DNA of 64,000 nt, from positions 28,976 to 92,975 of the forward strand of contig JBAZRK010000001.1 of the NCBI GenBank assembly GCA_041663005.1, written 5' to 3'. This stretch comes from Minisyncoccota bacterium. GTDB lineage: Bacteria > Patescibacteriota > Minisyncoccia > Phycocordibacterales > UBA9973. This document shows positions 6,045 through 19,751 of the stretch, piece by piece. The first letter of the stretch is position 1, and every line of letters starts with the position of its first letter. A program made the position numbers and the translations under genes. The notes under the pieces were generated by a model. The model saw nothing but the letters and a program-made list of their open reading frames with translations. It had not been told where the DNA came from and did not search any database.

Positions 6045-7115
6045 ATGCAAATTACTGTTCCCTATGCTAGTCTAAAAAGCATAATGGCCTACGAATTTTA
6101 TACCAACTCACAGAAGACCTGGACGGCAATGTTTCAAGCGATTGAGAACGCTAGAAGCTCTGTTTACTTGGAAACATATATATTTCTCGACGACTTGCAC
6201 AAATTTGATTTCCTGCGGTTGTTTCAAAAGAAAGCAGAGCAGGGAGTAAGGGTGCGCATTGTGCTTGATGCGTTCGGTAGTAGAGAATTGCCCAAGAAAT
6301 CAGTAGAAGAGCTTAAGGCGAGCGGGGTGGAAGTATTTTTTTACAGCCAGCTCTTGCACAGGATTCATAGGAAAATATTGATAATCGATGACAATACCGC
6401 TTTCATTGGCGGAGTCAATTTCCACGAAGTTGCGCGAACCTGGAATGATTTAACTATTCTTATTCGCGGTGTCTTAGTGAAGTCTATATTGCGCTCCTTT
6501 GCGAAGGTCTATGTCGAATGTGGGGGGCGAGACCCGCTAATTTTGAAAGAAAACAAAAAGCTCATCCTGGACAAAGCACGCAACTGGCTGGTGGAGCATT
6601 TCCCGGAAAACAAAAGCGCGACACTGAAGAAAGTTTATAAAAAAGCGTTAAGCAAAGCGGAGAGCCACGTGATACTAGTGACGCCTTACTTAATGCCCAG
6701 GCGGTGGTTCGTGAGAGCGCTCCACCAGGCGGTGCTTCGTGGGGTCCGGGTAGATGTCTTGGTGCCGAAAGTTTCCAATCACATTTGGGGTGACAGCATA
6801 GGAGCCTTTTTTATGCATAGACTTGCGCTCCTAGGGGTAAACTTTTATCTCGAGCCCGAGATGAACCATGCCAAAGGTATGCTCATCGATGATAGCGAAG
6901 GTCTGGTGGGCTCGAACAATCTCGACTTCTTTTCTTTCGATCTCAATTCAGAAGTTTGTGTTTTCTTAAGGGATCCAGAAGCGGTACAAAGGCTTGCGGA
7001 AATAATAGTAGGCTGGCAGAAGAAGGCAGAGCTTTTCAACCCGGACACCTATAAACCAAAATTTATCGATTACATTATCTCGCCTCTAGTGCGAATTCTC
7101 TCGCGAATTTTCTAA
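6045..7115 (+). CDS. phospholipase D / cardiolipin-synthase-like protein with two HKD motifs
   Basis: 356 aa; HRKILIIDDNTAFIGGVNF and HAKGMLIDDSEGLVGSNNLD = two HxKxxxxD motifs; start may be at downstream Met (6084). Confidence 0.75.
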   Translation: MQITVPYASLKSIMAYEFYTNSQKTWTAMFQAIENARSSVYLETYIFLDDLHKFDFLRLFQKKAEQGVRVRIVLDAFGSRELPKKSVEELKASGVEVFFYSQLLHRIHRKILIIDDNTAFIGGVNFHEVARTWNDLTILIRGVLVKSILRSFAKVYVECGGRDPLILKENKKLILDKARNWLVEHFPENKSATLKKVYKKALSKAESHVILVTPYLMPRRWFVRALHQAVLRGVRVDVLVPKVSNHIWGDSIGAFFMHRLALLGVNFYLEPEMNHAKGMLIDDSEGLVGSNNLDFFSFDLNSEVCVFLRDPEAVQRLAEIIVGWQKKAELFNPDTYKPKFIDYIISPLVRILSRIF

Positions 7116-7219
7116 TTTTGTAATATTAAAGCTTCCGAAGCGTCAAATATAGTGACGAGTCGAAAAGTATGCGCGCAGGAAATGCGAGCAAATTATTTAT
7201 TAGCTTAATTAATTGAAAA

Positions 7220-7759
7220 ATGAAAAAAACAACAATTGGAATTTTCGTCGAGCGAAATGATGCGGAAAAATTTATAAACTACGTTCACAATGAAATCAAA
7301 ATTCCCCACGAAGACATTTCTTACATCTATAAAGATGTACTAGGGATTGAAAGGGAAGTTGATACTGAAGAAATAAGCTCGCTTACCACAGCCGAGGGTG
7401 CTGAGAAAGGGGCGAAGACTGGAGCTGTCGTGGGAGCCTTGGGCGGCATCGCTGCCGTCGCGGGCGTCATACCTATAGTCGGGATGCTTTTTGCTGCAGG
7501 GCCCTTGATTGCGGCCATTGGGATTACCGGGGCATTGGGCACTACAGCAGCCGGGGCGGTGACTGGGGCGGCCATAGGGGGCATTATAGGAGCACTAGCT
7601 AACCTTGGGGTGGGTAAAGAGCGAGCCAAGGATTATGAAGACAGGGTTCTCTCCGGCAACATCCTAGTTGCGGTTAACTCAGAACAAGAGAAGGACGTAG
7701 AGGATGCAATGGCGAAACACAATGCCCTTGAGGTGGAGACATATGTGCCGAGTGTATAA
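7220..7759 (+). CDS. glycine-zipper membrane protein (general-stress-protein-like, DUF1269/YflT-like; name tentative)
   Basis: 179 aa; central GxxxG/AxxxG-rich hydrophobic segment flanked by charged N and C domains. Confidence 0.55.
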   Translation: MKKTTIGIFVERNDAEKFINYVHNEIKIPHEDISYIYKDVLGIEREVDTEEISSLTTAEGAEKGAKTGAVVGALGGIAAVAGVIPIVGMLFAAGPLIAAIGITGALGTTAAGAVTGAAIGGIIGALANLGVGKERAKDYEDRVLSGNILVAVNSEQEKDVEDAMAKHNALEVETYVPSV

Positions 7760-7792
7760 ATTCTTATAATTAAAATAGCAGAGGAAACGCCC

Positions 7793-7840
7793 AGCTCGCA
7801 AGGTATCTTGCGAGCTGGGCGTTGTTTTTTGTCGTTTTTC
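7793..7840 (+). terminator. intrinsic terminator
   Basis: cccagctcgcaag gtatc ttgcgagctggg (13-bp stem) followed by cgttgttttttgtcg. Confidence 0.75.
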
Positions 7841-7881
7841 TGCTAAGATGTTAGAAGTTCTTTCAACAATTAAAAATACAT

Positions 7882-7953
7882 TCCGGGGTAGCTCAGCGGT
7901 AGAGCGGTCGCCTGTTAAGCGATTGGTCGTAGGTTCGATCCCTACCCCCGGAG
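7882..7953 (+). tRNA. tRNA-Asn (anticodon GUU)
   Basis: UCCGGGGUAGCUCAGCGGUAGAGCGGUCGCCUGUUAAGCGAUUGGUCGUAGGUUCGAUCCCUACCCCCGGAG: acceptor UCCGGGG/CCCCGGA, anticodon loop CUGUUAA, T-loop UUCGAUC, discriminator G; 3' end overlapped by the stop region of the recombinase ORF. Confidence 0.85.
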
Positions 7954-9426
7954 CCCAATAGGTTGGTTAGAAGTTGCAAGTATCTTGTCAAAGGGAGAAC
8001 GCATTGAAAACACTAGGTTTTTTCCTTCTAACTGACAGTTCTGAAGTAGAAAATTAAGAAGTTGCCTTTTTTCAGGCACTTCAGAACTCTTGAAAATCTC
8101 AAGGGCCCTTTTTGCTATGTTTAGTATTGTATTTGCAATCAAATAAAACTCTTCATCTGCTTCAGAGTGGATGCTCATATCAGTCAAAATAGCACTTTGT
8201 CTTTCTTTGAACTCTTTCAATTTCTTGTCATACATTTCATCTGTAATACGACCATCTAATTTGTCGTCATACATTTTACTTATGCGGTCCTCAATTTGAT
8301 CGTATTCTTTCTTTAGGTTTGTCATATGGAACTTATGAAAACTAGCTTCACTTTTGCCCATAGAGCGTAATCCTTCAGTTATCTCTCTGATACGCTCATC
8401 AGGCATTTCTAAGCCCTCTAGGACCTTATAAACGGGCTTTAGAAGCACATTCTCAGGCACATAGTCCCGTTTACATTCCTTACGATAATTAGTGCAACTA
8501 TAGTAAATATAGGTCTTGCCGTTCTTCTTAACTTTGATTTCAGGGCTTATACCGCAACCACATTTTGAACACTTAATAAGCCCTCTAAAAATGAATGGCT
8601 TAGCTGAGTATTGAAAAGGTTTCTTATTGTAGCTCAATCTAACATCTTGGCATTTATCAAAAAGGTCCTTGCTGATGATTGGTTTATATTTATGAGTGTT
8701 GGTTTTCCCTTTATAAAGCATAACGCCATAATAGAAAGGATTTTGTAGTATATGAGCAATCATACTAACTGAAAGCATTTTTCCATTTGAACTTTTAAGC
8801 CCATATTCAAAAATCAGCTTTCTTAATTGATGATGAGAGCTGTTGCCAGTTGCATATACTTCAAACATTTTCTTGATTAGTGGTGCATCGTGTTCGTCTA
8901 ATTCTATATCTTGTTTATCTTCAATGTTCGTAAAGTTTCTGTATCCTCTAGGTGCTTTTCCTGACCATTCGTGATTATCAAACTTCTGCCAAATACTACG
9001 CTTTACATCATCAGAAAGTCGGTTTAGATATTGTTTAGCTAAGAATACTTTAGCTTCCCACATAAACATTTGATTACCTGTAGCATCTTTGTTTATGAAG
9101 AAACCGTCTTTTACGAAATGGATTTCAAGCCCTTCATTTTTACGCATCTCGTCAAGGTCCACAGCATCCTTGAAGTTTCTAGTTGCTCGGTCCACATTTT
9201 CACAGAGTAAAACCTTTATATTATTTTTTCTAATATGTTCAAGAACTTCTTCAAACTTTCTGCGGATTTTTGGACCAGCACTTTCAGAGAAGCAAAACTC
9301 TTTTTCTATTTCAAAATCTCTTTTGATTGCATATTTCCGTAAACTATCAATTTGAGCAGGGAGTGAGTGTCCTGTTTCTTCTTGCTCTTTAGTTGATACT
9401 CTTGCGAGAACTACAGCTTTTATCAT
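7942..9426 (-). CDS. large serine recombinase (resolvase/invertase catalytic domain + recombinase domain + Zn-ribbon)
   Basis: 494 aa; N-terminal VVLARVSTKEQ catalytic-Ser motif; C-terminal CSKCGCG...YYSCTNY zinc ribbon and coiled-coil tail typical of phiC31-type integrases. Confidence 0.85.
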   Translation of the reverse strand: MIKAVVLARVSTKEQEETGHSLPAQIDSLRKYAIKRDFEIEKEFCFSESAGPKIRRKFEEVLEHIRKNNIKVLLCENVDRATRNFKDAVDLDEMRKNEGLEIHFVKDGFFINKDATGNQMFMWEAKVFLAKQYLNRLSDDVKRSIWQKFDNHEWSGKAPRGYRNFTNIEDKQDIELDEHDAPLIKKMFEVYATGNSSHHQLRKLIFEYGLKSSNGKMLSVSMIAHILQNPFYYGVMLYKGKTNTHKYKPIISKDLFDKCQDVRLSYNKKPFQYSAKPFIFRGLIKCSKCGCGISPEIKVKKNGKTYIYYSCTNYRKECKRDYVPENVLLKPVYKVLEGLEMPDERIREITEGLRSMGKSEASFHKFHMTNLKKEYDQIEDRISKMYDDKLDGRITDEMYDKKLKEFKERQSAILTDMSIHSEADEEFYLIANTILNIAKRALEIFKSSEVPEKRQLLNFLLQNCQLEGKNLVFSMRSPFDKILATSNQPIGLRG

Positions 9427-10763
9427 AGGTCAAATAAATTAGTTTCAAAATCTTTTCTTGCTTCTTCTTTTTGTAATTCAATCTTTCTTTTTATGTCGCT
9501 TATCTCTTCTCTTAAAGAGATTATTTTATTTACTATTTTTTCTTGAGTTTTTATATCAGGAAGTGGAATTGGGAAGCTAAGATATTCTTGACCATTTATG
9601 TTGGGCTGTCCAGATACTCTTTGTTTAGAGTTTATCCATAACTTAAAAGGTTTTGTTTTTGAGTAGAAAAATATAAAATCAGAATTAGCGATTTTAGGGT
9701 TTATTCTATACCTAACTAAATATCCAGCATAGATACATTTACCAAAATGATTTTTATATAAAAATGTTTTTCCAACAGTATTACCTGATCTAGCTATAAG
9801 AAGGTCGTTATCCTCTAAAAGATACTGTTTATCAAACTTTTCGCTTGAAACAATTTCATCATTAAGTGAACCGTCTTCATTTATATCTGTAATTCTTACA
9901 TACCTTGTATCTGTTATTTTATCCGATGCTCTTGAGTTAGAGCCATATTTAGGTTTATCTAAAAGAGTAGTTCCAAAACTAACAATATCAAACTTTGATG
10001 ATTTCATTATTTCTTTTTTATTCCAAAAATCCCATCTATCTAATTCTTTGAAATTAGTAAGATAAAATCTTTTATTTTTTAGTTTTTCTTCAATACTTAT
10101 TCCCAATTCCTCTGATAGATAATCTTCAATTTTTTCATTAAGTTCATCTACTTTCTGTTCTAATTTTCTTACTTGAACTAATTCTTTATCATACTTGGCT
10201 ACTAGAGATTTTTGAGTAGGTATAGACGGAAGGGGTATTTCTATATTACTAAGCAGGTCAAAAGATAGGTTTTGTCTAACTGAACCCTTCGTTGATTTCT
10301 TTACTAGATGATTGAAAGTATTTGTTTTGAATAGTCGGAAGAAGAAATCATTATCTAGTTTGTCTTCTAGGCAACTAAATACAACATAAGCATTACTTAT
10401 ATACTCATATTTTTGATTTTCAGTTTTGATACCAACAGAGCCAACATTTACACGATATGGATTATAGGCAATCCAGTTTGTTTTCATTATCTTGTATGGC
10501 TGGTTTATTTTTGAACCTTTCTCTAGGTAAGCATCAAATACGCCTGTCTTGTTATTTACTCCCAAAATACCAAACTCTTGATCTGGAAAATCTTTCAGTT
10601 TTACTTTCTCTGTCTGTTCGTTTAAGACCAAGCTGAGTTTTACAAAGTCATACTTTGATTTAAGGTTATTGGTAGCATAACTTTTTACATCCCAGTTTAG
10701 CCAATTACTAAAAGACACAGTTTGAAGGTATTTGTATTCAGTTTTTTCTTTTACTGATGACAT
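9423..10763 (-). CDS. hsdS: type I restriction-modification specificity subunit
   Basis: 446 aa; two target-recognition halves separated and followed by conserved coiled-coil repeats (TQKSLVAKYDKELVQVRKLEQKVDELNEKIEDYL... and TQEKIVNKIISLREEISDIKRKIELQKEEARK); 4-nt overlap with recombinase start. Confidence 0.8.
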   Translation of the reverse strand: MSSVKEKTEYKYLQTVSFSNWLNWDVKSYATNNLKSKYDFVKLSLVLNEQTEKVKLKDFPDQEFGILGVNNKTGVFDAYLEKGSKINQPYKIMKTNWIAYNPYRVNVGSVGIKTENQKYEYISNAYVVFSCLEDKLDNDFFFRLFKTNTFNHLVKKSTKGSVRQNLSFDLLSNIEIPLPSIPTQKSLVAKYDKELVQVRKLEQKVDELNEKIEDYLSEELGISIEEKLKNKRFYLTNFKELDRWDFWNKKEIMKSSKFDIVSFGTTLLDKPKYGSNSRASDKITDTRYVRITDINEDGSLNDEIVSSEKFDKQYLLEDNDLLIARSGNTVGKTFLYKNHFGKCIYAGYLVRYRINPKIANSDFIFFYSKTKPFKLWINSKQRVSGQPNINGQEYLSFPIPLPDIKTQEKIVNKIISLREEISDIKRKIELQKEEARKDFETNLFDL

Positions 10764-10764
10764 A

Positions 10765-12888
10765 TTACTTTGTTTTTTTATACTTACGATATTCTTTTAC
10801 AACATCAATAAGCTCATTTTCACACTTTTCGCCTGTAGTTGTAATACCAGCTTTTTCAACTTCAGCTATTGGGATTTGGTAATCAAACTTTGTTTTGATT
10901 TCTTGTTTGATTTCATTATCAATCGTGCTGTTTAGAGTATTAAGTTCTTTTTTCTTTGTCTTTTTTACTTCGCCTTTTAGGTCCTTAACTTCTTTTTCCA
11001 ATTTCTCTAATTCTTTTTGGTATTTTGCTCTAATAGAGTTATTAGCTTCTTCTTTTATCTTTTCATACTTTTTACTTTCTGCATCAGTAAACTTTTGTAA
11101 GAATACCAAGCTTGGTTTTACTGTAGCCCCACTAGCTATAAATACATCTTGAGGAATAGAAACGATAAGATCTATTTTCGCTCTACCTTCAAAGTATTCA
11201 CGGACCTTTTGCAAGTTAGGATTATTCAAAAATCCTTCAGGTAATACAACTGCCATTTTTCCGCCTTTCTTAAGTATTCTTAAGTAGCGTTCCATAAATA
11301 GAACTTCGGTAAGTGTTGAGAAGTTTCCAGTTTCGTATGTATCAATAAGATTTTTACCTATATTCCTCTCTAGGTTTCTAATTGCTTCTAAACCTTCTTC
11401 GCCAAATCTCTTTTGAATATAACTTTCTTTTCCTGCATATTTATTATCATTTTCAGTTATTTTTTGGTCCTTATTTACTCTTGAGCCAAAGGGTGGGTTA
11501 GTAAGAACTATGTCAAAGCGATTTTCAAATATACCTCCAACATCTAGTAAGCCGTCATTATGATGAACTCCTCCGTGTCCATCGCCGTGCATAATCATAT
11601 TCATTTTACTTGTTCTAGCCATTCTAGGGTTAGCATCAGAACCATAAATACATTTATGAGAAAGGTCATACAATCTTGAACCTTCGGTTTGATTATCTAA
11701 TTCTTTGTTTAGCTTTTTGAACTCTGTTTCAACAACTGCATCAATTTTTTCCTTTTCGGTATCATTTGATTTTTGATACTTTTCATCAAAGTATTTTTTC
11801 TTTATTTCTTCTTTTTTATTTAGAATATCATCTTCAATCTTTTCTCTTACATAATCAAACGCCTTAATAAGAAATCCTCCTGAGCCACAACAAGGGTCGC
11901 AAATCAGATCGCCTTCCTTTGGGTCCACAATATCAATCATAAAATCAACTATGGTTCTTGGTGTAAAGAATTGACCAAGTTCACCTCTAAAGGTTTTACC
12001 TAAGAATTGTTCAAAAGCTATACCTTTTACATCATCACCAGTATCAGAAAGGTTGTATCTTTCAAGTTCTTTCACTATTTGCTCAAAGCTATTTTCACGG
12101 ATTTTGATTTCTTCATTAGCTTCAAAGAGTTCATCTTTCTCAAAATCTTCTTTTGTCTTTTCAAATAGGACCTGATAGAAAGGTTTTGAGTTCTTAGATG
12201 CTGTTTCATCATATCCTTTTTTAAGTTCGTTGAAACGACTTATTGAGAATACCTTCTTTCCTTGCTGTCTTTCATATCTAATTTTTATAAACAAGATTTT
12301 ACTTATCTCATCAAAAGCACCTTCAGGGGATAGTTTGTCATTATTTCTAATTATATTGTGGCACTTGAAAAGTAGTTTTGAAAACTCATCTCTAGTAAAT
12401 ACTTTTGTTTCTTCAGCTAATTCTTTGAGCTTTTCTTCATCATTTACATCACTTGCTTTCGGTATGTTTACAATTTCATTCAAATCAACAGGGAGCTTAT
12501 TCTCAAGCATTTGAAAATACTTTGTTTCTGCATTGTTGTGAGTTATGAAAAACTTGGCTCTAGCCCAAGAAGCATAGTTATTACCTTGATAGTAATCTTC
12601 AGGGTGTATAACGACATTGTCTGACTTACATTCAACTACAATGAAAGCATTTGTTTTACTTAGTTTTTCTTCTTTTGATTTCCAAATTACAATATCCGCT
12701 CTTGATTTTCCTTGTCCTCTTTGGCTGTTATTTACTTGAAGTTCTTCATCCATTTGCTCAAGTGAATATCCGTAATCATTTACAAGTGTGCAAATATAAT
12801 TTTGTCGGACCTCTTCTTCAGGGGTATAAGAAAGCCACTTGTTTCTTAGAGGAGAGAATATCTTATTGTTTTCCATTTGTATTTTCAT
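10765..12888 (-). CDS. hsdM: type I RM N6-adenine DNA methyltransferase subunit with extra N-terminal HsdR-N/Mrr-like domain
   Basis: 707 aa; motif I DPCCGSGGFL, motif IV LTNPPFG; N-terminal ~130 aa (RADIVIWKS...NAFIVVECKSDN) matches HsdR N-terminal (PD-(D/E)xK-like) module pattern. Confidence 0.85.
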   Translation of the reverse strand: MKIQMENNKIFSPLRNKWLSYTPEEEVRQNYICTLVNDYGYSLEQMDEELQVNNSQRGQGKSRADIVIWKSKEEKLSKTNAFIVVECKSDNVVIHPEDYYQGNNYASWARAKFFITHNNAETKYFQMLENKLPVDLNEIVNIPKASDVNDEEKLKELAEETKVFTRDEFSKLLFKCHNIIRNNDKLSPEGAFDEISKILFIKIRYERQQGKKVFSISRFNELKKGYDETASKNSKPFYQVLFEKTKEDFEKDELFEANEEIKIRENSFEQIVKELERYNLSDTGDDVKGIAFEQFLGKTFRGELGQFFTPRTIVDFMIDIVDPKEGDLICDPCCGSGGFLIKAFDYVREKIEDDILNKKEEIKKKYFDEKYQKSNDTEKEKIDAVVETEFKKLNKELDNQTEGSRLYDLSHKCIYGSDANPRMARTSKMNMIMHGDGHGGVHHNDGLLDVGGIFENRFDIVLTNPPFGSRVNKDQKITENDNKYAGKESYIQKRFGEEGLEAIRNLERNIGKNLIDTYETGNFSTLTEVLFMERYLRILKKGGKMAVVLPEGFLNNPNLQKVREYFEGRAKIDLIVSIPQDVFIASGATVKPSLVFLQKFTDAESKKYEKIKEEANNSIRAKYQKELEKLEKEVKDLKGEVKKTKKKELNTLNSTIDNEIKQEIKTKFDYQIPIAEVEKAGITTTGEKCENELIDVVKEYRKYKKTK

Positions 12889-12896
12889 AATAGTTT

Positions 12897-13088
12897 TTAT
12901 TGTGTGCTTGTTTTCTTTAAGAATGCTTCAAAGTCCGACCTATCTATACGAAACTCTTTTCCTATCTTATGTGCCTTGAGTTTCTTTTTGTCTATGTAGC
13001 GATAAATTGTCATTATGTTTAGCCCCAATTTATCTGCTAAATCTTTGGCGGTGTAGAAATCTTTTTCTTTCATATGTTTTTTATTCAT
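12897..13088 (-). CDS. excisionase-family helix-turn-helix DNA-binding protein
   Basis: 63 aa; YTAKDLADKLGLNIMTIYRYIDKKKLKAHKIGKEFRIDRSDFEAFL matches excisionase/MerR-type HTH pattern (..LS..T.YR.I..G.L.A.K.G...RI...D...F). Confidence 0.65.
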   Translation of the reverse strand: MNKKHMKEKDFYTAKDLADKLGLNIMTIYRYIDKKKLKAHKIGKEFRIDRSDFEAFLKKTSTQ

Positions 13089-13106
13089 AGTTATATTTAT
13101 AATACT

Positions 13107-14243
13107 TTACTTTTCTTTACAAGGCAAATCTTGAAGAGTGGATAAACGGAATGGTTCAAAGTCCTTTAAGCTATGCTCTATTTGCCTTACCCAAGCGTGG
13201 TATGTTTTACCTGAAATATCATCAAGAAACTTCAAATCTTCTGCTATACGATACCAAGTCCGAGTTGTAGCGTATCTTTCAATAATGGATCTAGTATCTC
13301 TTATACCTTCCTTGCTAAGAGCCCTAAGTCCTACTAAGTAAATTGCATCTACTGGCTTTATTTTCGGCTTATTTTTGAAGATAGTATCTAGCGTTTTCTT
13401 TGGATTACTTTCTACATCAAACAAGAATAAGTTTTTACCTGTTATTAGTTCGGTCCAGTAATTGAGAAGTATTTTTTGACAAAGTTCTTTATTGAAAACC
13501 TCCTTAAAGGTTGGTTTTTCCTTGAACCCTAAACTTTTTAGAGTGGCATTCATTTTTACTTTTTTTGCAAGTCTAACTTCTATTCGTAATACTTCTTTTT
13601 TATCTTTTTTAATTAAGGTATCAAACAAGGAAAGTTGGACCGAGTTTTGGTCTTTATCCATTGCTCTTTTGTCTGGTTTTTTAAGGTCCTGAACTTTGTC
13701 ATAAACAACAAGCGAGTGTGAGTTCGTATAGAACTGAAGAGAGTGTCCGCTATTTCTGAAACTATCACGATTAAGGTCCATTTTCTTACTAACATCAATC
13801 TTGTGTAGTTCAGTAATAACAAAACTTGAAGTATAACCTTCTGTTAGTTCTATGTTTTTGGAGGGGTGGAAAGCAGATACTTTCGCATTTCTCAAATCTT
13901 CGTGAGATACGCCAACTAACATATCAAGCATTGCTTCGTGTAGAGCAGATATAACTTTTTCAAAGTCCTTTTCTTCAACTTCATCAACATTGTTTCCGTA
14001 TAGCATTTTGGCTACAGAGAACTCTATCTTCAGCGGTATTTCATCGCCGTTTCTTGTCATTCTTTTCATTAGGGTTAGGCGTGGCTTGTAAGTTCCTTGT
14101 TTTTTATCTGTAGCGGTTGGATTGTTTACGCATTTCACTAAGTAATTTCCTGACATCTTAAGAATGTTCGCATTCGGTGTAAATGCTTCAGGTCTGAGCT
14201 TATAGGATCCTCTAGGGATTGTTAGGATTACTGTATCTAGCAT
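13107..14243 (-). CDS. uncharacterised island protein, possibly a replication-initiation (Rep_trans/CRI-like) protein
   Basis: 378 aa; N-terminal MLDTVILTIPRGSYKL resembles start of rolling-circle/phage replication initiator families; no other recognisable motifs; assignment tentative. Confidence 0.35.
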   Translation of the reverse strand: MLDTVILTIPRGSYKLRPEAFTPNANILKMSGNYLVKCVNNPTATDKKQGTYKPRLTLMKRMTRNGDEIPLKIEFSVAKMLYGNNVDEVEEKDFEKVISALHEAMLDMLVGVSHEDLRNAKVSAFHPSKNIELTEGYTSSFVITELHKIDVSKKMDLNRDSFRNSGHSLQFYTNSHSLVVYDKVQDLKKPDKRAMDKDQNSVQLSLFDTLIKKDKKEVLRIEVRLAKKVKMNATLKSLGFKEKPTFKEVFNKELCQKILLNYWTELITGKNLFLFDVESNPKKTLDTIFKNKPKIKPVDAIYLVGLRALSKEGIRDTRSIIERYATTRTWYRIAEDLKFLDDISGKTYHAWVRQIEHSLKDFEPFRLSTLQDLPCKEK

Positions 14244-14446
14244 ATTTTTCTTTTACATATAAATGCGGATTTACTCTTTTATCAACCTTAAGAAGCAAGG
14301 CAAAAAAACCTAATACATTGTCTTGCTCTGTTTCGCTAAGTTCTTTTAACGACCAGTCCGTATTCAATTTTTCTTTGTTTTCTTCGGACATAAAAAAACC
14401 TATAAGGTTATGCTTATAGATTATTCTTATGCTTGTTTACAAAAGT

Positions 14447-16042
14447 TTATAAACTTTTGCGGACCTTTATATATTTTGGATTTATGGATATTGTCTTAGT
14501 TGTTATTTCAAGAAAATCCTTAATAGTAGTTTCTTGGGCTATGGTCCTATTTACTGCTTTTCCTGCTTGATAAGCTTTGTTTTTCTTTATCTTTTCGCCA
14601 AAAGAGTAGCCCCAATCTTCTTGTATTTCATCATTAGCCCAAGTTTTAGAAACATCTTTGAATAAGGTTCTCATTAGTTTATGCGGATCGCTTTCTTCTT
14701 TTTTGGCAATAAGTATTTCTTTTCCTGCAAAAATAAGTTTACGGTTTTTATCATCAAAAATAGGATTTTTATCAATCTTAATTTCTTTGACTGGTTCGGT
14801 TGTTTTTCTCTTATTACTTAATCTTACTTTGAAAAGATAACCTCTATCATATAAATCAAATAAATGTTTAGGACCATATGAAAAATCTTCAATAGTAAGA
14901 TAACCTTCTCTTTCTAAGGAAAGCATAGCGTGAACAAACAAAAACAAATCCTTTATTTTGTCTTTATCGTTCAATGGGACCAGTTTTACAGTGTTGTCTG
15001 TATAGTCGCCAATATACTCAGGTTCAAAGAATGGGTGTCCTATTTCTAGGTCATTTCTTTGATACTCTTCATATTTTCCTTCAATATGTTTTACAAGCAT
15101 ATCCCTTTGTTTTTTGAAGCCAAAAAATTGAGTATGCAAAGGCGTTGAAAGTCCTTTAGAAAAGAAAGTTCCAGTTAGTCCTTTTTTACTAGTTCCGTCT
15201 AATTCATCTCTTTCAAAAGAGGTTATATATTTATCTAAAAACGCTTCTAGTTTCGTGGTGTTTTTTATAGCCAATCCAAACTCAGCGTATTCAAAAATAA
15301 GTTTTGCTAATCTTGTTTGAGTATCTTCATAAAATGCTGTTTTTTCTGTAAGAGCATTTATTTTGAATTGTTCTTTGTTGTGCCTGAAATATATACTTAA
15401 AAACCCTTCAGCTTCTTTCGTGGTCCATTTACTGCCGTCATACTCAGTAATAAGTTTGTTTATTATTTCAATAAAATCTTTATCAGATTTTTTATTAAGA
15501 ATTGCTTCTTGATATTCTCTTACTGGGGGATTAGCTAATTTTGTAAATAACACTTGATCGTCTATGTTGTTTTTTCTTTTTCTACTTATCAATTCATCTA
15601 GGAATTGTTTTTGCTCTTTTGTTAGATATTTTAAGATTTCCTTATCTTTAGGGTTTTCTAAGTAATCATTCATTGAACCTCTAACATCATCGGTAAGAAA
15701 TCCTCCTTCAACCAAGCTATAATCAGCATTCGCATATACAATAAAACCTTTTTCATCAAGAAGTTTTCCTATCTCTAAAAGATAACGCAAGACAAAAGGA
15801 GAACCCATAAGAGAATCTATTCTCTTCATTGATTGCTCATATGAATTACTTATATCTTCTTCTAGTGTAGCAATTTCACTAGGTTGTTTTGGGATCTGTA
15901 TAGGCGTAAACTTTTGGTTGGGTGTAAATAATCCGCTATTATCAGTAGATATTCTTTTATATCTAAAAAGCCAATACAAAATAAGAAGCTCTTTTTCATC
16001 TAAGTATTTTTTGTCCTTATTTTCTATATCTAAGGGGTTCAT
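14447..16042 (-). CDS. hypothetical protein (531 aa), no recognisable domain
   Basis: Long uninterrupted ORF, AT-rich island codon usage, first gene of the co-oriented island operon; no Walker, nuclease or MTase motifs seen by eye. Confidence 0.55.
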   Translation of the reverse strand: MNPLDIENKDKKYLDEKELLILYWLFRYKRISTDNSGLFTPNQKFTPIQIPKQPSEIATLEEDISNSYEQSMKRIDSLMGSPFVLRYLLEIGKLLDEKGFIVYANADYSLVEGGFLTDDVRGSMNDYLENPKDKEILKYLTKEQKQFLDELISRKRKNNIDDQVLFTKLANPPVREYQEAILNKKSDKDFIEIINKLITEYDGSKWTTKEAEGFLSIYFRHNKEQFKINALTEKTAFYEDTQTRLAKLIFEYAEFGLAIKNTTKLEAFLDKYITSFERDELDGTSKKGLTGTFFSKGLSTPLHTQFFGFKKQRDMLVKHIEGKYEEYQRNDLEIGHPFFEPEYIGDYTDNTVKLVPLNDKDKIKDLFLFVHAMLSLEREGYLTIEDFSYGPKHLFDLYDRGYLFKVRLSNKRKTTEPVKEIKIDKNPIFDDKNRKLIFAGKEILIAKKEESDPHKLMRTLFKDVSKTWANDEIQEDWGYSFGEKIKKNKAYQAGKAVNRTIAQETTIKDFLEITTKTISINPKYIKVRKSL

Positions 16043-16083
16043 ATATACTTTACTTTACTTTACTTTTAGATATAATTCAATAG

Positions 16084-16871
16084 TGGAAAATCAAAAATAC
16101 AGATTATACATAGATGAGTCGGGCACTCATAAATACAGTAATTCTACTGACATCAAAGAACGCTATTTGTGTTTATTAGGGGTGATAATTTCTTCTGAGC
16201 ACAATCAAAACTTTATTTCTCCAAAATGGGAAGAGTTAAGAAATATATTTACACAAGATGCTGATTTTCCGCCTGTCTTTCATTATGTAGATGTTGTAAG
16301 TGGGAATAATGGGTTTGGAAAACTATCTGAACAAAATACCAGAGAAACATTTAATCAAAAGTATTTAGAACTCTTAAAAGATGGCGAATATACCATTTGT
16401 TGTGTTGTATTAGATAAAAAAACACATATTGAAACATATAATACCTCAGCTATGCATCCGTATCATTATTGCCTAAATGTTCTCTTGGAAAGATATGTAA
16501 GGTTTTTATCAAGTAAAAATGCAAGTGGTGATGTTTTAGCTGAAGCCAGAGGAAAAAAAGAAGATAATTTACTTCGTTCAGAGTTTGAGAGATTTTATGA
16601 ACACGGAACATCTTTTCTGGAAGCTGATATTGTAAAAAAGCGATTGACGAGCCATAAGCTAAAACTCAAAACTAAGGAAGCTAAAATTGCTGGTTTAGAA
16701 ATTGCAGATATGTTGGCTACGCCAATGAAGTATCTGACACTTAAAAAATATAAGAAAATAGATGCTCTGAGTGATAATTTTACAAAAACTGTATTAGATA
16801 CTGTTTTCTCTAAAGTTCGTAAAAGTCCCTTTACTGGTTCTACTCAAGGTTATGGGATCAAGCTAATATAA
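16084..16871 (+). CDS. DUF3800 family protein
   Basis: Probable GTG start at 16084 just after TATAAT (16070-16075); N-terminal YRLYIDESGT motif characteristic of DUF3800; annotated ORF extension to 15918 overlaps divergent gene and is rejected. Confidence 0.5.
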
Positions 16872-17111
16872 ATAGAAAAACCAGCTTTCGCTGGTCCTCT
16901 ACGACGCTCTTACGAGACATCCCACTCCAATAAATGGATTACTTTTATTATACCAGTTTTAAGCTCAAAATGATAGGAAAAACTTTTTGGTGTGTATAAC
17001 TTATTATATAGCCACTGGTCTTTGTAAAAGCCCTAAAATACCGCTAAAGCCCAATTCTTTCTGTATTTCTTTCCAATTGATAGTTCTGAACTCGGACAAT
17101 ACAGGGAGCAA

Positions 17112-17146
17112 TGTTAAAATCTTAAGTCCACGAAAGTGGGCTTAAG
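17112..17146 (-). terminator. hairpin terminator downstream of PP-loop gene (possibly bidirectional)
   Basis: cttaagtccacgaaagtgggcttaag stem-loop flanked by A/T runs on both sides. Confidence 0.4.
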
Positions 17147-17151
17147 ATTTT

Positions 17152-18459
17152 TTAGTTTACCAAGACCCTTTTCTCCATTTCATCAAAATTGTAGTTCGCA
17201 GGAAAGTGTTTTAGAAAAAGCTCGATCGCCGGTTCGCCTGCATATTCTTTACTCTCTGCTGCATAATGCATTGCGAGAATCATCTCTTCCGGTTCACCGA
17301 CACAGTCCAGTGGTTTAAACCCTTCGATGCCTAGGATGCGGCGAAAGAGTGGTAGCAAACGCAAGTTTTCATAAAGGTTGGCCCCGAAGATACTGACCAC
17401 TTCTTTTTTTGGGAGATATGCCGAAAAGCAGGCAAAGAGGAATACACATTTAGGACACCGTTTGCACCAGTATGCCCGACGCCGTAGAAGCTGCTCCGGG
17501 CGCGAAAGCCAAAAATAGTTATTGCAGCTGGTAACGTGGTGGAGATACTGCGGATACTGCACGAAGCGACGCACAATTTCTAGCTCGCTGTACTTTCGCA
17601 AAAGCGATTTTGTGGAAATGTCGGGTGTTATGTAGCGTTGTATGTAATCATTAACCATTTTTTCTGCCTCGGATGATTTACACCATTGATGATTAACTTC
17701 AAGTCCGCGGTAGGTGAGATTGCCGAAATCAGCGCTTCGTTCGTTTGAGAATACGATGGAATTGTAGCCTAGAAGTTCAGCTAGTAACGCAGCAACGAAG
17801 CTGAAAGTTGAAACTGACGGATAGGCGTTAGAAATTCCAAAAATGGACATTATAAAGTCGCTGGATGAATCGCGGCGGCGAGTTACGGTAATTGTTTTCG
17901 CGCCCACGAGCGCGCCAATGCGCTTGTGTGCTGGGGTTGGAGCAAAAGCGAAAAAGTCGAACGGTGCACCTGACCCCTTCAACATTTCAGCGGAGAGGAT
18001 AGAATCTTTGCCTGCGCCATTTAGAAGAAGAGCTCTCGCTGGCCGGGGGAAACGCGCGGGCGTAGGCGCAGGAAGAGATTCATCATAGGGGAAGGAGATA
18101 ACATTATGAAAATCCATCTTCATATCGTAGAAGAATTCTCCGAGTCCATTCAAATATAGCGAGTCCCAGAAATGGGCTTGCTCACGCGTTAACGTAAAGT
18201 CCTGAATGCGGATGTTCCTCGTCGGGAAGAGGCACCAGTAGTTAATACCGAGCATTAGGAGAAGCGCCTGAAGCGTAGGCTCGAGAACTTCCTTCGGAAC
18301 ATTGCCCCATGATTCCGGAGGGATGTCCTTGAGTATAAGCTTATCGGTAAAAGTTTTCGTAATCCCAAATTTAAATTGTACTTTGTAGGTAAAGGTGATG
18401 ATTGAACTAGTAGGGTCCACTTTATATGTGCCGAAAGTAAAAGATGACGGATGCAACAT
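17152..18459 (-). CDS. PP-loop (adenine nucleotide alpha-hydrolase) superfamily ATPase with C-terminal CxxC Zn-ribbon-like motifs; function unknown
   Basis: 435 aa; LLLNGAGKDS resembles SGGxDS PP-loop; WCKRCPKC plus additional Cys; GC-rich relative to neighbouring island. Confidence 0.6.
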   Translation of the reverse strand: MLHPSSFTFGTYKVDPTSSIITFTYKVQFKFGITKTFTDKLILKDIPPESWGNVPKEVLEPTLQALLLMLGINYWCLFPTRNIRIQDFTLTREQAHFWDSLYLNGLGEFFYDMKMDFHNVISFPYDESLPAPTPARFPRPARALLLNGAGKDSILSAEMLKGSGAPFDFFAFAPTPAHKRIGALVGAKTITVTRRRDSSSDFIMSIFGISNAYPSVSTFSFVAALLAELLGYNSIVFSNERSADFGNLTYRGLEVNHQWCKSSEAEKMVNDYIQRYITPDISTKSLLRKYSELEIVRRFVQYPQYLHHVTSCNNYFWLSRPEQLLRRRAYWCKRCPKCVFLFACFSAYLPKKEVVSIFGANLYENLRLLPLFRRILGIEGFKPLDCVGEPEEMILAMHYAAESKEYAGEPAIELFLKHFPANYNFDEMEKRVLVN

Positions 18460-18542
18460 TTTTACATCATAACATAGCCCAGAGGTTAAGTTTTCCTGAT
18501 ATAATGCCTAGACGAACGTAATTTTCGGTTCGGATTAATTAT

Positions 18543-18782
18543 ATGAAAATAGAAGTACTTGGCTCAGGATGTGCGACTTGTAAAAAATTGTTTGAAATAA
18601 CAGAGAAAGCTGTGAGCGAGCTAGGGCTCGACACAGAAGTTGCCTACATAACAGATATTCAAAAGATTGTGGCTATGGGCCTGATGCAGAGCCCGGTTTT
18701 AGCTATCAACGGTAAGCCGGTTCTCGTCGGCTTTACTTCTGACATAGAAAAAATCAAAAAGCTAGTAGAAGAAAATAAATAA
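18543..18782 (+). CDS. small thioredoxin-fold protein (CxxC, redox-active disulfide protein-2-like)
   Basis: 79 aa; MKIEVLGSGCATCKK; conserved pairing with downstream DUF318 permease. Confidence 0.7.
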   Translation: MKIEVLGSGCATCKKLFEITEKAVSELGLDTEVAYITDIQKIVAMGLMQSPVLAINGKPVLVGFTSDIEKIKKLVEENK

Positions 18783-18785
18783 TTT

Positions 18786-19751
18786 ATGAGCATTTTCTAC
18801 CCAATAAAACTCCTTGCCGATTGGCTTACTTACTCTGTACTATCCATCACCCCTGACACACTTTTAGGAGAGGCAGTAAACTTTTTCATATATGACAACT
18901 TAAAAATATTTATACTGATGGCGGTTATTATATTTTCTGTTTCTATAATTCGGTCATATTTGCCACCAGAAAAAATACGGGTCTTGCTTTCGCATAAAAA
19001 TAAATACACAGGCAACATTGCTGCCTCGCTCTTGGGCATAATTACACCCTTTTGTTCTTGCTCAGCGATACCTTTATTCTTGGGGTTTATTCAAGCTGGG
19101 GTGCCACTCGGCACCACCTTCTCTTTCCTAGTGGCCTCGCCGATGATAAACGAGATAGCGCTCGTTCTTCTCTTGGGAATGTTCGGCTGGAAAATAGCTC
19201 TGATGTATATAGCAAGCGGGCTCATAATTTCAATCTTTTCGGGAATTATAATTGGAAAAATGAAAGTAGAAAATTTAGTGGAGCCATTTGTATATCAAAA
19301 TTCTATAAATGGAAATGTGGAATTGCCACCGATGACCAAGACAGAGAGAATTATTTATGCCAGAGATTATACTTTAGATATTCTTAAAAAAGTTTGGCTT
19401 TATATTTTAATCGGGATTGGCATTGGGGCTTGGATACACGGGTATGTCCCGGCAGATTTCTTGGCACAGTATGCCGGAAGTGATAAATGGTACGCTGTGT
19501 CCTTGGCTGTCCTAATCGGTATACCTCTGTATTCGAACGCCGCGGGAGTTATACCTCTTGTTTCTGCCTTGACCGAAAAGGGGGTTGCTATGGGTACGAC
19601 TCTTGCTTTTATGATGTCTATCACCGCATTATCTTTGCCTGAGTTTATGATTCTTAAAAAAGTAATGAAAATAAAATTGATTTTTATTTTTGCTGGAATA
19701 GTTGCGCTTGGCATTACCCTTACAGGGTATCTCTTTAATGCAGTGTTATAA
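18786..19751 (+). CDS. DUF318/ArsP-like permease with CxC motif
   Basis: 321 aa polytopic membrane protein; TPFCSCSAIPLF motif typical of the two-Cys permease family. Confidence 0.7.
   Translation: MSIFYPIKLLADWLTYSVLSITPDTLLGEAVNFFIYDNLKIFILMAVIIFSVSIIRSYLPPEKIRVLLSHKNKYTGNIAASLLGIITPFCSCSAIPLFLGFIQAGVPLGTTFSFLVASPMINEIALVLLLGMFGWKIALMYIASGLIISIFSGIIIGKMKVENLVEPFVYQNSINGNVELPPMTKTERIIYARDYTLDILKKVWLYILIGIGIGAWIHGYVPADFLAQYAGSDKWYAVSLAVLIGIPLYSNAAGVIPLVSALTEKGVAMGTTLAFMMSITALSLPEFMILKKVMKIKLIFIFAGIVALGITLTGYLFNAVL

Follow-up and report, generated by a model that had tools for sequence, protein, structure and literature searches.

The DNA analysed here is a stretch of 64,000 nucleotides (the 64-kb window) from a Minisyncoccota bacterium (GenBank assembly GCA_041663005.1, contig JBAZRK010000001.1, positions 28,976 to 92,975 of the forward strand). 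It contains an island of about 9 kb with a GC content of 31–33%, against about 45% in the flanks in the GC profile of the window; the remainder is ordinary chromosome encoding DnaE, HisRS, GlmS, GlnA and MurL. The island carries a series of minus-strand genes which, in the order of transcription, encode a 531-aa protein, a 59-aa open reading frame (ORF), a 378-aa protein, a 63-aa HTH_17 protein, a 707-aa methyltransferase, a 446-aa HsdS and a 494-aa recombinase. This report focuses on the 531-aa and 378-aa proteins. Their genes probably form the head of the replication and control unit of an integrative plasmid-like element of approximately 9.1 kb (about 7,952–17,055), located at a tRNA-Asn gene and carrying restriction-modification (RM) genes as swappable cargo. 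The features of the locus are as follows.

7881–7957, plus strand: tRNA-Asn(GTT), found with ARAGORN; the integration target, whose 3' tip the island abuts.
7942–9426, minus strand: large serine recombinase, 494 aa (Pfam Resolvase, Recombinase, Zn_ribbon_recom).
7952–7959: candidate attachment (att) core AGCCCAAT at the tRNA-side junction, placed by local alignment and by analogy with a related locus, L041.
9423–10763, minus strand: HsdS-like specificity subunit, 446 aa, cargo (Pfam Methylase_S; PADLOC Specificity_I, 316 bits).
10765–12888, minus strand: N6-adenine methyltransferase with an N-terminal HSDR_N_2 domain, 707 aa, cargo (Pfam N6_Mtase, 2.4e-33; PADLOC MTase_I, 1101 bits).
12897–13088, minus strand: HTH_17/excisionase-family small DNA-binding protein, 63 aa, backbone (Pfam HTH_17, 5.6e-14; TIGR01764).
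13099–13127, minus strand: promoter P2, from a promoter scan, with the same architecture in 66 related loci.
13107–14243, minus strand: Rep, 378 aa, a protein of the Rep_trans/Phage_CRI superfamily and predicted rolling-circle initiator.
14212–14391, minus strand: conserved 59-aa ORF (ORF59), with phmmer matches at the same position in 46 of 80 loci.
14392–14419, minus strand: terminator- or attenuator-like hairpin; a hairpin and T-run occupy the equivalent position in 38 of 63 loci.
14435–14459, minus strand: palindrome CAAAAGTTT-AT-AAACTTTTG, proposed site of the 531-aa protein; 40 of 63 loci have repeats around the corresponding stop codon.
14447–16042, minus strand: 531-aa protein, first gene of the replication unit, with 84 homologues.
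14465–14770, minus strand: OmpR/PhoB-type winged-helix module of the 531-aa protein (residues about 425–526).
16049–16063, minus strand: GTAAAGTAAAGTAAA direct repeats in promoter P1, with 41 related sites before the equivalent gene.
16083–16871, plus strand: DUF3800 gene, 262 aa, left-arm cargo (Pfam DUF3800, 3.6e-10; also a gene call in the source contig).
17048–17055: candidate att core AGCCCAAT at the far junction, from local alignment.

Both ORFs are genuine genes, with 528 (378-aa) and 84 (531-aa) homologous protein clusters. An initial annotation of this DNA had placed them exactly, and the same-strand neighbours that it listed (HTH_17, N6-methyltransferase, HsdS and large serine recombinase) do follow. 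Homologues with a named source are all labelled as lineages of the Candidate Phyla Radiation (CPR; Parcubacteria, Paceibacterota, Minisyncoccia, Harrisonbacteria) or simply as "bacterium".

The 378-aa protein (Rep) is composed of a catalytic domain (residues about 1–245) and a helical C-terminal domain (about 250–370). In the predicted structure, the catalytic domain has the crescent-shaped, TATA-binding-protein-like fold of Rep_trans and Phage_CRI, and it begins at residue 1 (strands 2–9 in the model; profile position 1 corresponds to residue 3 in the relative P0064). Y181, D182, K183 and D186 are invariant in an alignment of 77 relatives, as are E74, E145 and E222, and D3 is nearly so. The sequence Y-D-K-V-Q-D fits motif III, in which a catalytic tyrosine in Y-x-K is followed by an acidic residue. 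Motif III has been described in Rep_trans proteins as Y-x-K-x-x-E/D in the company of acidic metal ligands (PMC6499999; PMC13107129); in RelSt3 it reads Y-x-K-x-x-E, and Y252, K254 and E257 were shown to matter (PMC6499999). The tyrosine of RepDE is Y191 and its acidic metal ligands are D46, D142 and E214, an order matched in the alignment by E74, E145 and E222, together with the nearly invariant D3, which are candidate metal ligands. The motifs of Phage_CRI have likewise been reported to parallel those of Rep_trans (Carr et al.). Because motif III and the acidic residues are invariant, the 378-aa protein has a recognisable catalytic centre, contrary to the initial annotation, which saw no catalytic motifs in it. 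The loose N-terminal resemblance to rolling-circle initiators noted there was correct, and it is now accounted for by a Rep_trans fold and motifs.

Family searches with the relatives point the same way. In a one-by-one scan, PF05144 (Phage_CRI, G2P N-terminal) was matched by 13 of the 77 relatives and PF02486 (Rep_trans) by seven. Relatives 87%, 81% and 73% identical to the Rep of the window scored 28.4, 28.0 and 25.2 bits on PF05144, for which the Pfam cut-off is 21.7; P0009 scored 28.4 bits and the match of P0064 spans profile positions 1–217 of 232. PF05144 is the sole curated family passed by Rep relatives, and the Rep of the window has a weak PHROG match to "replication protein" (E 8e-4). 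Rep is a divergent member of the known Rep_trans/Phage_CRI superfamily. Its domains are arranged as in the initiators of plasmids and phages, and it is predicted to nick and rejoin DNA in rolling-circle replication.

The genomic setting of Rep was surveyed with one genome per species. In 185,579 species-representative genomes, at least 113 loci with a Rep relative were found, 80 of which were fetched; nearly all of these 80 come from the CPR. The order of genes is constant: a protein of 170–553 aa, often the 59-aa ORF (46 of 80), Rep (80), HTH_17 (71), a variable slot and a large serine recombinase (71). The slot between HTH_17 and the recombinase measures 0–6.5 kb (median 2.1 kb) and is empty in nine loci, where the two genes adjoin. 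Its 90 ORFs are mainly DNA methyltransferases (N6_N4, 16; C5, 12; Eco57I-type, 11; N6_Mtase, 10; D12, 6), joined by ResIII helicase-nucleases (9) and the named type II nucleases AlwI, HpaII, HaeII, Tsp45I, ThaI, CfrBI and BpuJI; enzymes of the Eco57I/MmeI type are among the slot's contents. A minority are small genes without an assigned role, a Bro-N protein and a D-Ala-D-Ala ligase. A regular-expression count of methylase motifs (31 of 51 loci) is an undercount, as L047 has a Pfam N6_N4 methylase lacking the motif, so an exact per-locus frequency of RM genes is not claimed.

Through all of this variation, Rep and the DNA-binding genes are retained whether the cargo is type I-like, a complete type II, a type IIG or a type III system, a set of small genes or nothing. 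Of the 80 loci, only 8 have an HsdM-like gene with Rep and 2 an HsdS; the RM system of the window is therefore one of many interchangeable cargos. The RM genes are best read as exchangeable cargo of a mobile island and not as partners of the two proteins. Homologues of the two proteins do adjoin RM genes, but as vector beside cargo. Among the roles offered by the initial annotation, the one that is supported is that of replication or maintenance machinery, given the Rep_trans fold and motifs and the place of both genes in the backbone of the 80 loci whatever the cargo.

The distance between Rep and HTH_17 is 18 nt in the window and 400–830 nt in about 12 loci (L007, L009, L011, L020, L024, L032, L041, L044, L048, L065, L072 and L080). 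In L041 an ORF of 144 aa that matches no family lies in this gap, which may be a third variable position of the backbone.

The 531-aa protein has an orphan N-terminal region (residues about 1–420) and a C-terminal winged helix (AlphaFold2 model, confidence score pLDDT 82). In the predicted structure, residues about 425–526 show the topology of OmpR/PhoB effector domains, with a four-stranded sheet, three helices and a C-terminal hairpin. The protein has no match in Pfam, NCBIfam, PDB, PADLOC or PHROG, and a Pfam scan of 26 relatives returned noise only. PF00486 (Trans_reg_C) was matched neither by the protein nor by 25 relatives, and a receiver domain is absent; the protein has an OmpR/PhoB fold yet is not a response regulator. 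The module is mobile between proteins. Its roughly 100 residues reappear at 63–73% identity on unrelated N-termini of about 390 aa, and an iterated profile places it at the end of the gene directly upstream of Rep in 42 loci, shuffled among differing N-termini.

An ORF of 170–553 aa was found at the position of the 531-aa gene in all 62 loci with enough upstream sequence. Its C-terminus is the winged-helix module in 34 of these and a differing helix-turn-helix (HTH)-like type in 13 (L022, L023, L039, L042, L050, L051, L056–L058, L060, L063, L068 and L077). The alternative protein has 220–320 aa and a conserved HTH-like C-terminus (...RNDFIYENR.LPRKEIMELV...LDYGHIGKIISLEKKKRK), and one member has a weak match to DUF6965. 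Kinship of this type with the winged helix was rejected (hhalign probability 0.2%).

A proposed target of the 531-aa protein lies at the end of its own gene. The palindrome CAAAAGTTT-AT-AAACTTTTG (14459–14440) is centred on the stop codon and can alternatively be read as half-sites GTTTAT...GTAAAC. Repeats of 7–9 nt with a period of 10–11 nt, or short palindromes, were found at the equivalent stop codon in 40 of 63 loci, compared with 6 of 63 in the control and 3 of 63 in shuffled sequence; direct repeats about 10–11 bp apart occur there in 22 related loci. The sequence of the repeats co-varies with the subtype of the winged-helix module (for instance TAAAGTTAG and TGTCTTAAG) and the repeats were for that reason assigned to the 531-aa protein. 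It is proposed to be an element-specific DNA-binding protein that would recognise the palindrome or repeats at the stop codon. Winged-helix domains of OmpR and PhoB bind tandem direct repeats about 10–11 bp apart; the domain of the 531-aa protein is like theirs in fold and topology, and the site in the window is a palindrome instead of a direct repeat.

The 203-nt gap between the two genes, treated as plain intergenic spacing in the initial annotation, is occupied by this palindrome, by a terminator-like hairpin and by the conserved 59-aa ORF, which had been missed. ORF59 starts inside the gap and overlaps the start of Rep by 32 nt. It is annotated as a gene in three assemblies, including the source assembly, and has no family match in Pfam, NCBIfam, PADLOC or PHROG. 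The hairpin has its stem at 14419–14413/14406–14400, a CATAAC loop and a run of seven T at 14398–14392, and it abuts the ATG of ORF59. A hairpin with T-run abuts this ATG in 38 of 63 loci, with stems that vary among loci. In the window, an 80-nt region with two hairpins folds at −24.3 kcal/mol (z = −6.07). RNAalifold gave no consensus structure for 35 hairpins because differences in loop length broke the alignment, and the hairpins were scored individually instead.

A second conserved DNA element is found at two promoters. P2, which overlaps the stop codon of Rep and directly precedes the HTH_17 gene, is of the sigma-70 type, with a −35 TTGCCT (13127–13122), a 17-nt spacer and a −10 TATTAT (13104–13099). 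Its spacer contains the direct repeat GTAAA-N5-GTAAA (13120–13106), and the consensus in 66 related loci is TTGc.A-T-GTAAAG-N4-GTAAAG-TATAAT. In P1, the repeats GTAAAGTAAAGTAAA (16049–16063) lie 21 nt upstream of the start codon of the 531-aa protein, and a TTGAAT sits 17 nt upstream of a −10-like hexamer TAAAGT. In 1.27 Mb of sequence, 109 exact copies of GTAAA-N5-GTAAA lie on the coding strand, as against 5 on the opposite one. There are typically two copies per element, before HTH_17 (66 loci) and before the first gene (41 loci), giving 107 sites in related loci. These repeats were rejected as a general site of the 531-aa protein, being equally present with other C-terminal classes. Since they occur whatever the C-terminal module, a universal factor of the backbone is the likelier ligand, and the HTH_17 protein is a candidate. 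Because the conserved P2 precedes HTH_17, the island probably has two transcription units, one for replication and one for HTH_17, cargo and recombinase. The co-transcription of all these genes that had been proposed cannot be shown, as P2 separates the units.

Several features connect the element to tRNA genes. The overlap of recombinase and tRNA gene is 16 nt in the window, and 45 of 58 related loci likewise have a recombinase ORF that runs 10–64 nt into a convergent tRNA gene and stops there. The tRNAs concerned are Asn (30), Ser (5), Gln (4), Arg (2), His (2), Trp (1) and Asp (1). In the window, local alignment of 7943–7959 with 17039–17055 gave 13 of 17 identical positions and an 8-nt exact core, AGCCCAAT. 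By analogy with L041, the att core would be AGCCCAAT at 7952–7959 and 17048–17055, which would delimit an island of about 9.1 kb; the GC content climbs past about 17.0 kb, consistent with the far junction on that side. The predicted attP junction would read ...ACCGCTAA-AGCCCAAT-AGGTTGG... and the predicted attB ...CCGGAGCCCAAT-TCTTTCTG... At the far end of the island the 8-nt core was found and no displaced tRNA fragment; end repeats of 15–24 nt are seen in a minority of other loci. In NCBIfam, the recombinase scores highest on CcrB and XisF, though far short of the cut-offs.

The related locus L041 provides a delimited element. Two 100% identical copies of 6,441 nt lie head-to-tail at a tRNA-Gln gene (6772–19658), and all three junctions (the left one, the internal one and that on the 3' tip of the tRNA) share a 5-nt core, TGCTG. 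This shows that an attP-type junction exists in nature, whether the two copies were integrated in tandem or the assembler had picked up a circle. The element of 6.4 kb consists of the backbone and a left-arm cargo of a CsoR-type repressor, MauE and DUF305. In L041, the recombinase frame reads across the junction, and the protein has 494 aa in one form and 519 aa in the other. The last approximately five codons and the stop codon of the recombinase in the window lie in the tRNA-Asn gene, past the candidate junction. As the reading frame crosses the attachment site, the recombinase of an integrated island is expected to have another C-terminus than that of an excised or tandem one. To the left of the L041 element, a stretch of 86 nt is repeated 4.8 kb upstream with 95% identity.

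The empty site was also sought. Contigs retrieved through the neighbouring MurL were either occupied or truncated. The predicted empty-site 20-mer had a single match in the metagenomes of the Joint Genome Institute (JGI), in an unrelated contig without a tRNA or similarity to the window, and this match was dismissed as chance. An assembly from a second sample (L082/L088, SRR18595301) breaks between murL and the island (about 17114–17151 in the window), at a terminator hairpin with a 16-bp stem (17116–17151). This break could reflect the inverted repeat itself or a mixture of occupied and empty sites in the population.

Taken as an integrative plasmid-like element, the island could work as follows. 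Excision by the large serine recombinase would release a circle. One of its strands would be nicked by Rep, which would use Tyr181 and a metal held by the conserved acidic residues, stay linked to the DNA by a covalent bond, enable host enzymes to start the leading strand and then reseal the nick. Such replication would keep the excised circle from being lost and would supply copies for transfer or re-integration. The winged helix of the 531-aa protein would bind the palindrome or repeats at its own stop codon, just upstream of the hairpin before ORF59 and rep, and in doing so might set the expression of Rep or mark the origin. The HTH_17 protein, the cargo and the recombinase would be expressed as a second unit from their own promoter.

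A number of observations weigh against this interpretation. The Rep of the window itself falls below every Pfam and NCBIfam threshold, with no Pfam match at E ≤ 0.1, and neither Foldseek against the PDB nor a profile search of PDB sequences gave a match. No conserved candidate for an origin or nick site emerged from k-mer scans of non-coding DNA, and searches for a circular or empty-site sequence of this island found none. The N-terminal 420 residues of the 531-aa protein yielded no functional clue in library and phmmer searches; an exhaustive phmmer search with the N-terminal 425 residues against 1.84 billion representatives gave 30 matches, all from its own family. Co-variation is the single line of evidence that assigns the stop-codon repeats to this protein, and the strongest conserved DNA motif, GTAAA-N5-GTAAA, does not track the winged-helix module. 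About half of the related elements have another DNA-binding C-terminus at this gene position.

Several known systems resemble parts of the element. The initiators of pT181-family and pSTK1 plasmids (RepC, RepD, RepDE and RepSTK1; PDB 4CWC, 4CIJ) are 10–13% identical to Rep, with no match among PDB sequences, and Rep differs from them in a longer insertion between Tyr181 and E222. They serve free plasmids of Firmicutes, whereas Rep belongs to an integrated element with a serine recombinase in a CPR host. Mobilizable transposons of the Tn4451/Tn4453 type and SCC (staphylococcal cassette chromosome) elements are also small, are excised as circles by a large serine recombinase (TnpX, CcrAB) and have exchangeable cargo. 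They too have a small Xis-like gene beside the recombinase. Unlike the present element, they use Mob/Pre or the Cch helicase as relaxase or replication protein, and they are not known to target the 3' tip of tRNA genes or to be dedicated carriers of RM genes. In plasmid pMV158, a gene for a small DNA-binding repressor, copG, lies directly upstream of repB in one unit, with repeats and hairpins around. The position of the 531-aa gene is like that of copG, or of the attenuator before repC of pT181, an analogy that suggests a possible role in copy-number control. CopG is a ribbon-helix-helix protein of 45 aa and RepB an HUH enzyme; here, in contrast, a 531-aa winged-helix protein and an intervening 59-aa ORF are found.

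Another parallel, and the main competing explanation, is offered by the MOBT relaxases. ICEBs1 NicK, Tn916 Orf20 and ICESt3 RelSt3 also combine a Rep_trans fold with an integrated element, and their motif III, Y-x-K-x-x-E, compares with Y-D-K-V-Q-D here. The present element differs from theirs in having no conjugation genes and a recombinase of the serine instead of the tyrosine type. On the relaxase explanation, the 378-aa protein would be primarily a conjugative relaxase, a divergent analogue of these enzymes; the island would be an integrative mobilizable element that passes between cells in single-stranded form through the chromosomally encoded type IV secretion system (T4SS) of the MPF_FATA type found in Patescibacteria, and the 531-aa protein an accessory factor that binds the origin of transfer (oriT). 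NicK and Orf20 both relax and replicate, so a relaxase function is compatible with replication, and an excised integrative and conjugative element is reportedly replicated by rolling circle (Lee et al. 2010; Wright & Grossman 2016). MOBT relaxases share the fold and serve MPF_FATA systems (PMC6499999). In a 2025 survey, conjugation-type T4SS were found to be widespread in Patescibacteria, with chromosomal and distant genes and one MOBT among almost no relaxases, and "very different relaxases" were left possible (PMC12102498). The distribution of the element family across CPR lineages also suits this explanation. Its spread is unexplained by known vehicles, given that Rep had no tblastn match in 72,556 plasmid records or in 50,697 phage records and that 2.9 million viral contigs of IMG/VR gave two relatives (L084, L085), against 113 in genome representatives. 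These two contigs may be provirus calls that overlap an island.

Other features speak against a relaxase. The N-terminal HTH in front of PF02486 by which MOBT proteins are defined is absent from Rep, in which the catalytic domain begins at residue 1 and the helical domain comes after it. In sequence, Rep is nearer to Phage_CRI (the family of phage gene II) than to Rep_trans. Neither a coupling protein nor a T4SS gene was seen on the island or among the ten longest of the remaining ORFs in the window, and no oriT was found. A primarily conjugative role is unlikely. A bolder form of the idea is more doubtful again: that the 378-aa family is the "very different relaxase" missed by the 2025 survey. 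Small tRNA-targeting islands across the CPR would then be excised by a serine recombinase, nicked by a Phage_CRI-like enzyme and carried from one ultra-small bacterium to another by the chromosomal conjugation-type T4SS, acting mainly as vehicles that shuffle RM systems. If this were true, the enigmatic T4SS of the CPR would gain a role in DNA transfer, and it would be known by which principal route defence genes are exchanged in the radiation.

The best-matching family of Rep, PF05144, was defined on the G2P of filamentous phages, and the weak PHROG match also names a replication protein. The island could on this basis be a defective or unusual inovirus-like prophage with the 378-aa protein as its gene II replication protein, and inoviruses are small and able to integrate. 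However, no morphogenesis ATPase (pI/Zot), coat-like or ssDNA-binding gene was detected among the island ORFs with Pfam and PHROG, the delimited L041 relative consists of backbone and three cargo genes only, and relatives are scarce in viral contigs and lacking in phage records. A prophage origin is very improbable. Least credible of all is that the two proteins work with the R-less HsdM/HsdS pair as a novel nuclease or effector, or form an anti-defence module that protects the element: the shared strand and tight spacing, the RM genes by the backbone of most related elements and the N-terminal 420 residues without known function would allow it, but the backbone is kept with any cargo or none, the slot holds HsdM-like genes in the few loci counted above and otherwise systems with their own nuclease, small genes or nothing, a conserved promoter lies between the units, the methylase has its own HSDR_N_2 domain, PADLOC matched neither protein and no signal of PADLOC, PHROG or Pfam suggests anti-defence, and the folds are those of a Rep_trans nicking enzyme and a winged-helix DNA-binding domain.

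The RM genes of the window can be described in their own right as cargo of the integrative element. The 707-aa methylase has an N-terminal HSDR_N_2 domain (PD-(D/E)xK-like, E 5.8e-23), in which a D65...E86-C-K88 pattern can be read from the sequence. The initial annotation spoke of an R-less type I RM system. An HsdR/ResIII-like gene is indeed absent from the island and from the ORFs of at least 700 aa in the window, so that of the classical type I set, with HsdR beside HsdM and HsdS, only M and S are present; the label nonetheless passes over the HSDR_N_2 domain of the methylase. This domain, a putative nuclease, may be the simpler explanation of the "missing R", and the methylase and HsdS could form a self-contained, BcgI-like two-gene system. 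Modules of M and S only recur as cargo in L065, L043 and L076. Membership in MADS (the methylation-associated defence system) was rejected on NCBIfam scores (MAD1, 32.7 against 80 bits; MAD2, 289.9 against 720; MAD5, 60 against 400); counterparts exist here for only three of the eight mad genes.

No description of the element family was met in the literature searched, and within that literature it seems to be a variant not yet described among integrative rolling-circle elements. It is distinguished by a combination of features: a CPR-wide distribution, targeting of tRNA tips by a serine recombinase whose ORF crosses the attachment site, a dedicated RM slot and two shared promoters. Taken singly, an initiator and a DNA-binding companion on a mobile island are ordinary, and the value lies at the level of the family. 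The family gives a handle on the movement of defence genes between organisms that have very small genomes and are difficult to grow in culture. It provides compact parts for genetic tools in the CPR (a recombinase, att sites, Rep and two conserved promoters), as well as a candidate, amenable to testing, for the relaxase that is missing from the T4SS of Patescibacteria.

The left arm of the island holds a DUF3800 gene on the strand opposite to the other genes, and 4 of the 80 other loci also have a DUF3800 gene upstream of Rep. A divergent promoter-like site (16049–16076) before this gene overlaps the GTAAA repeats.

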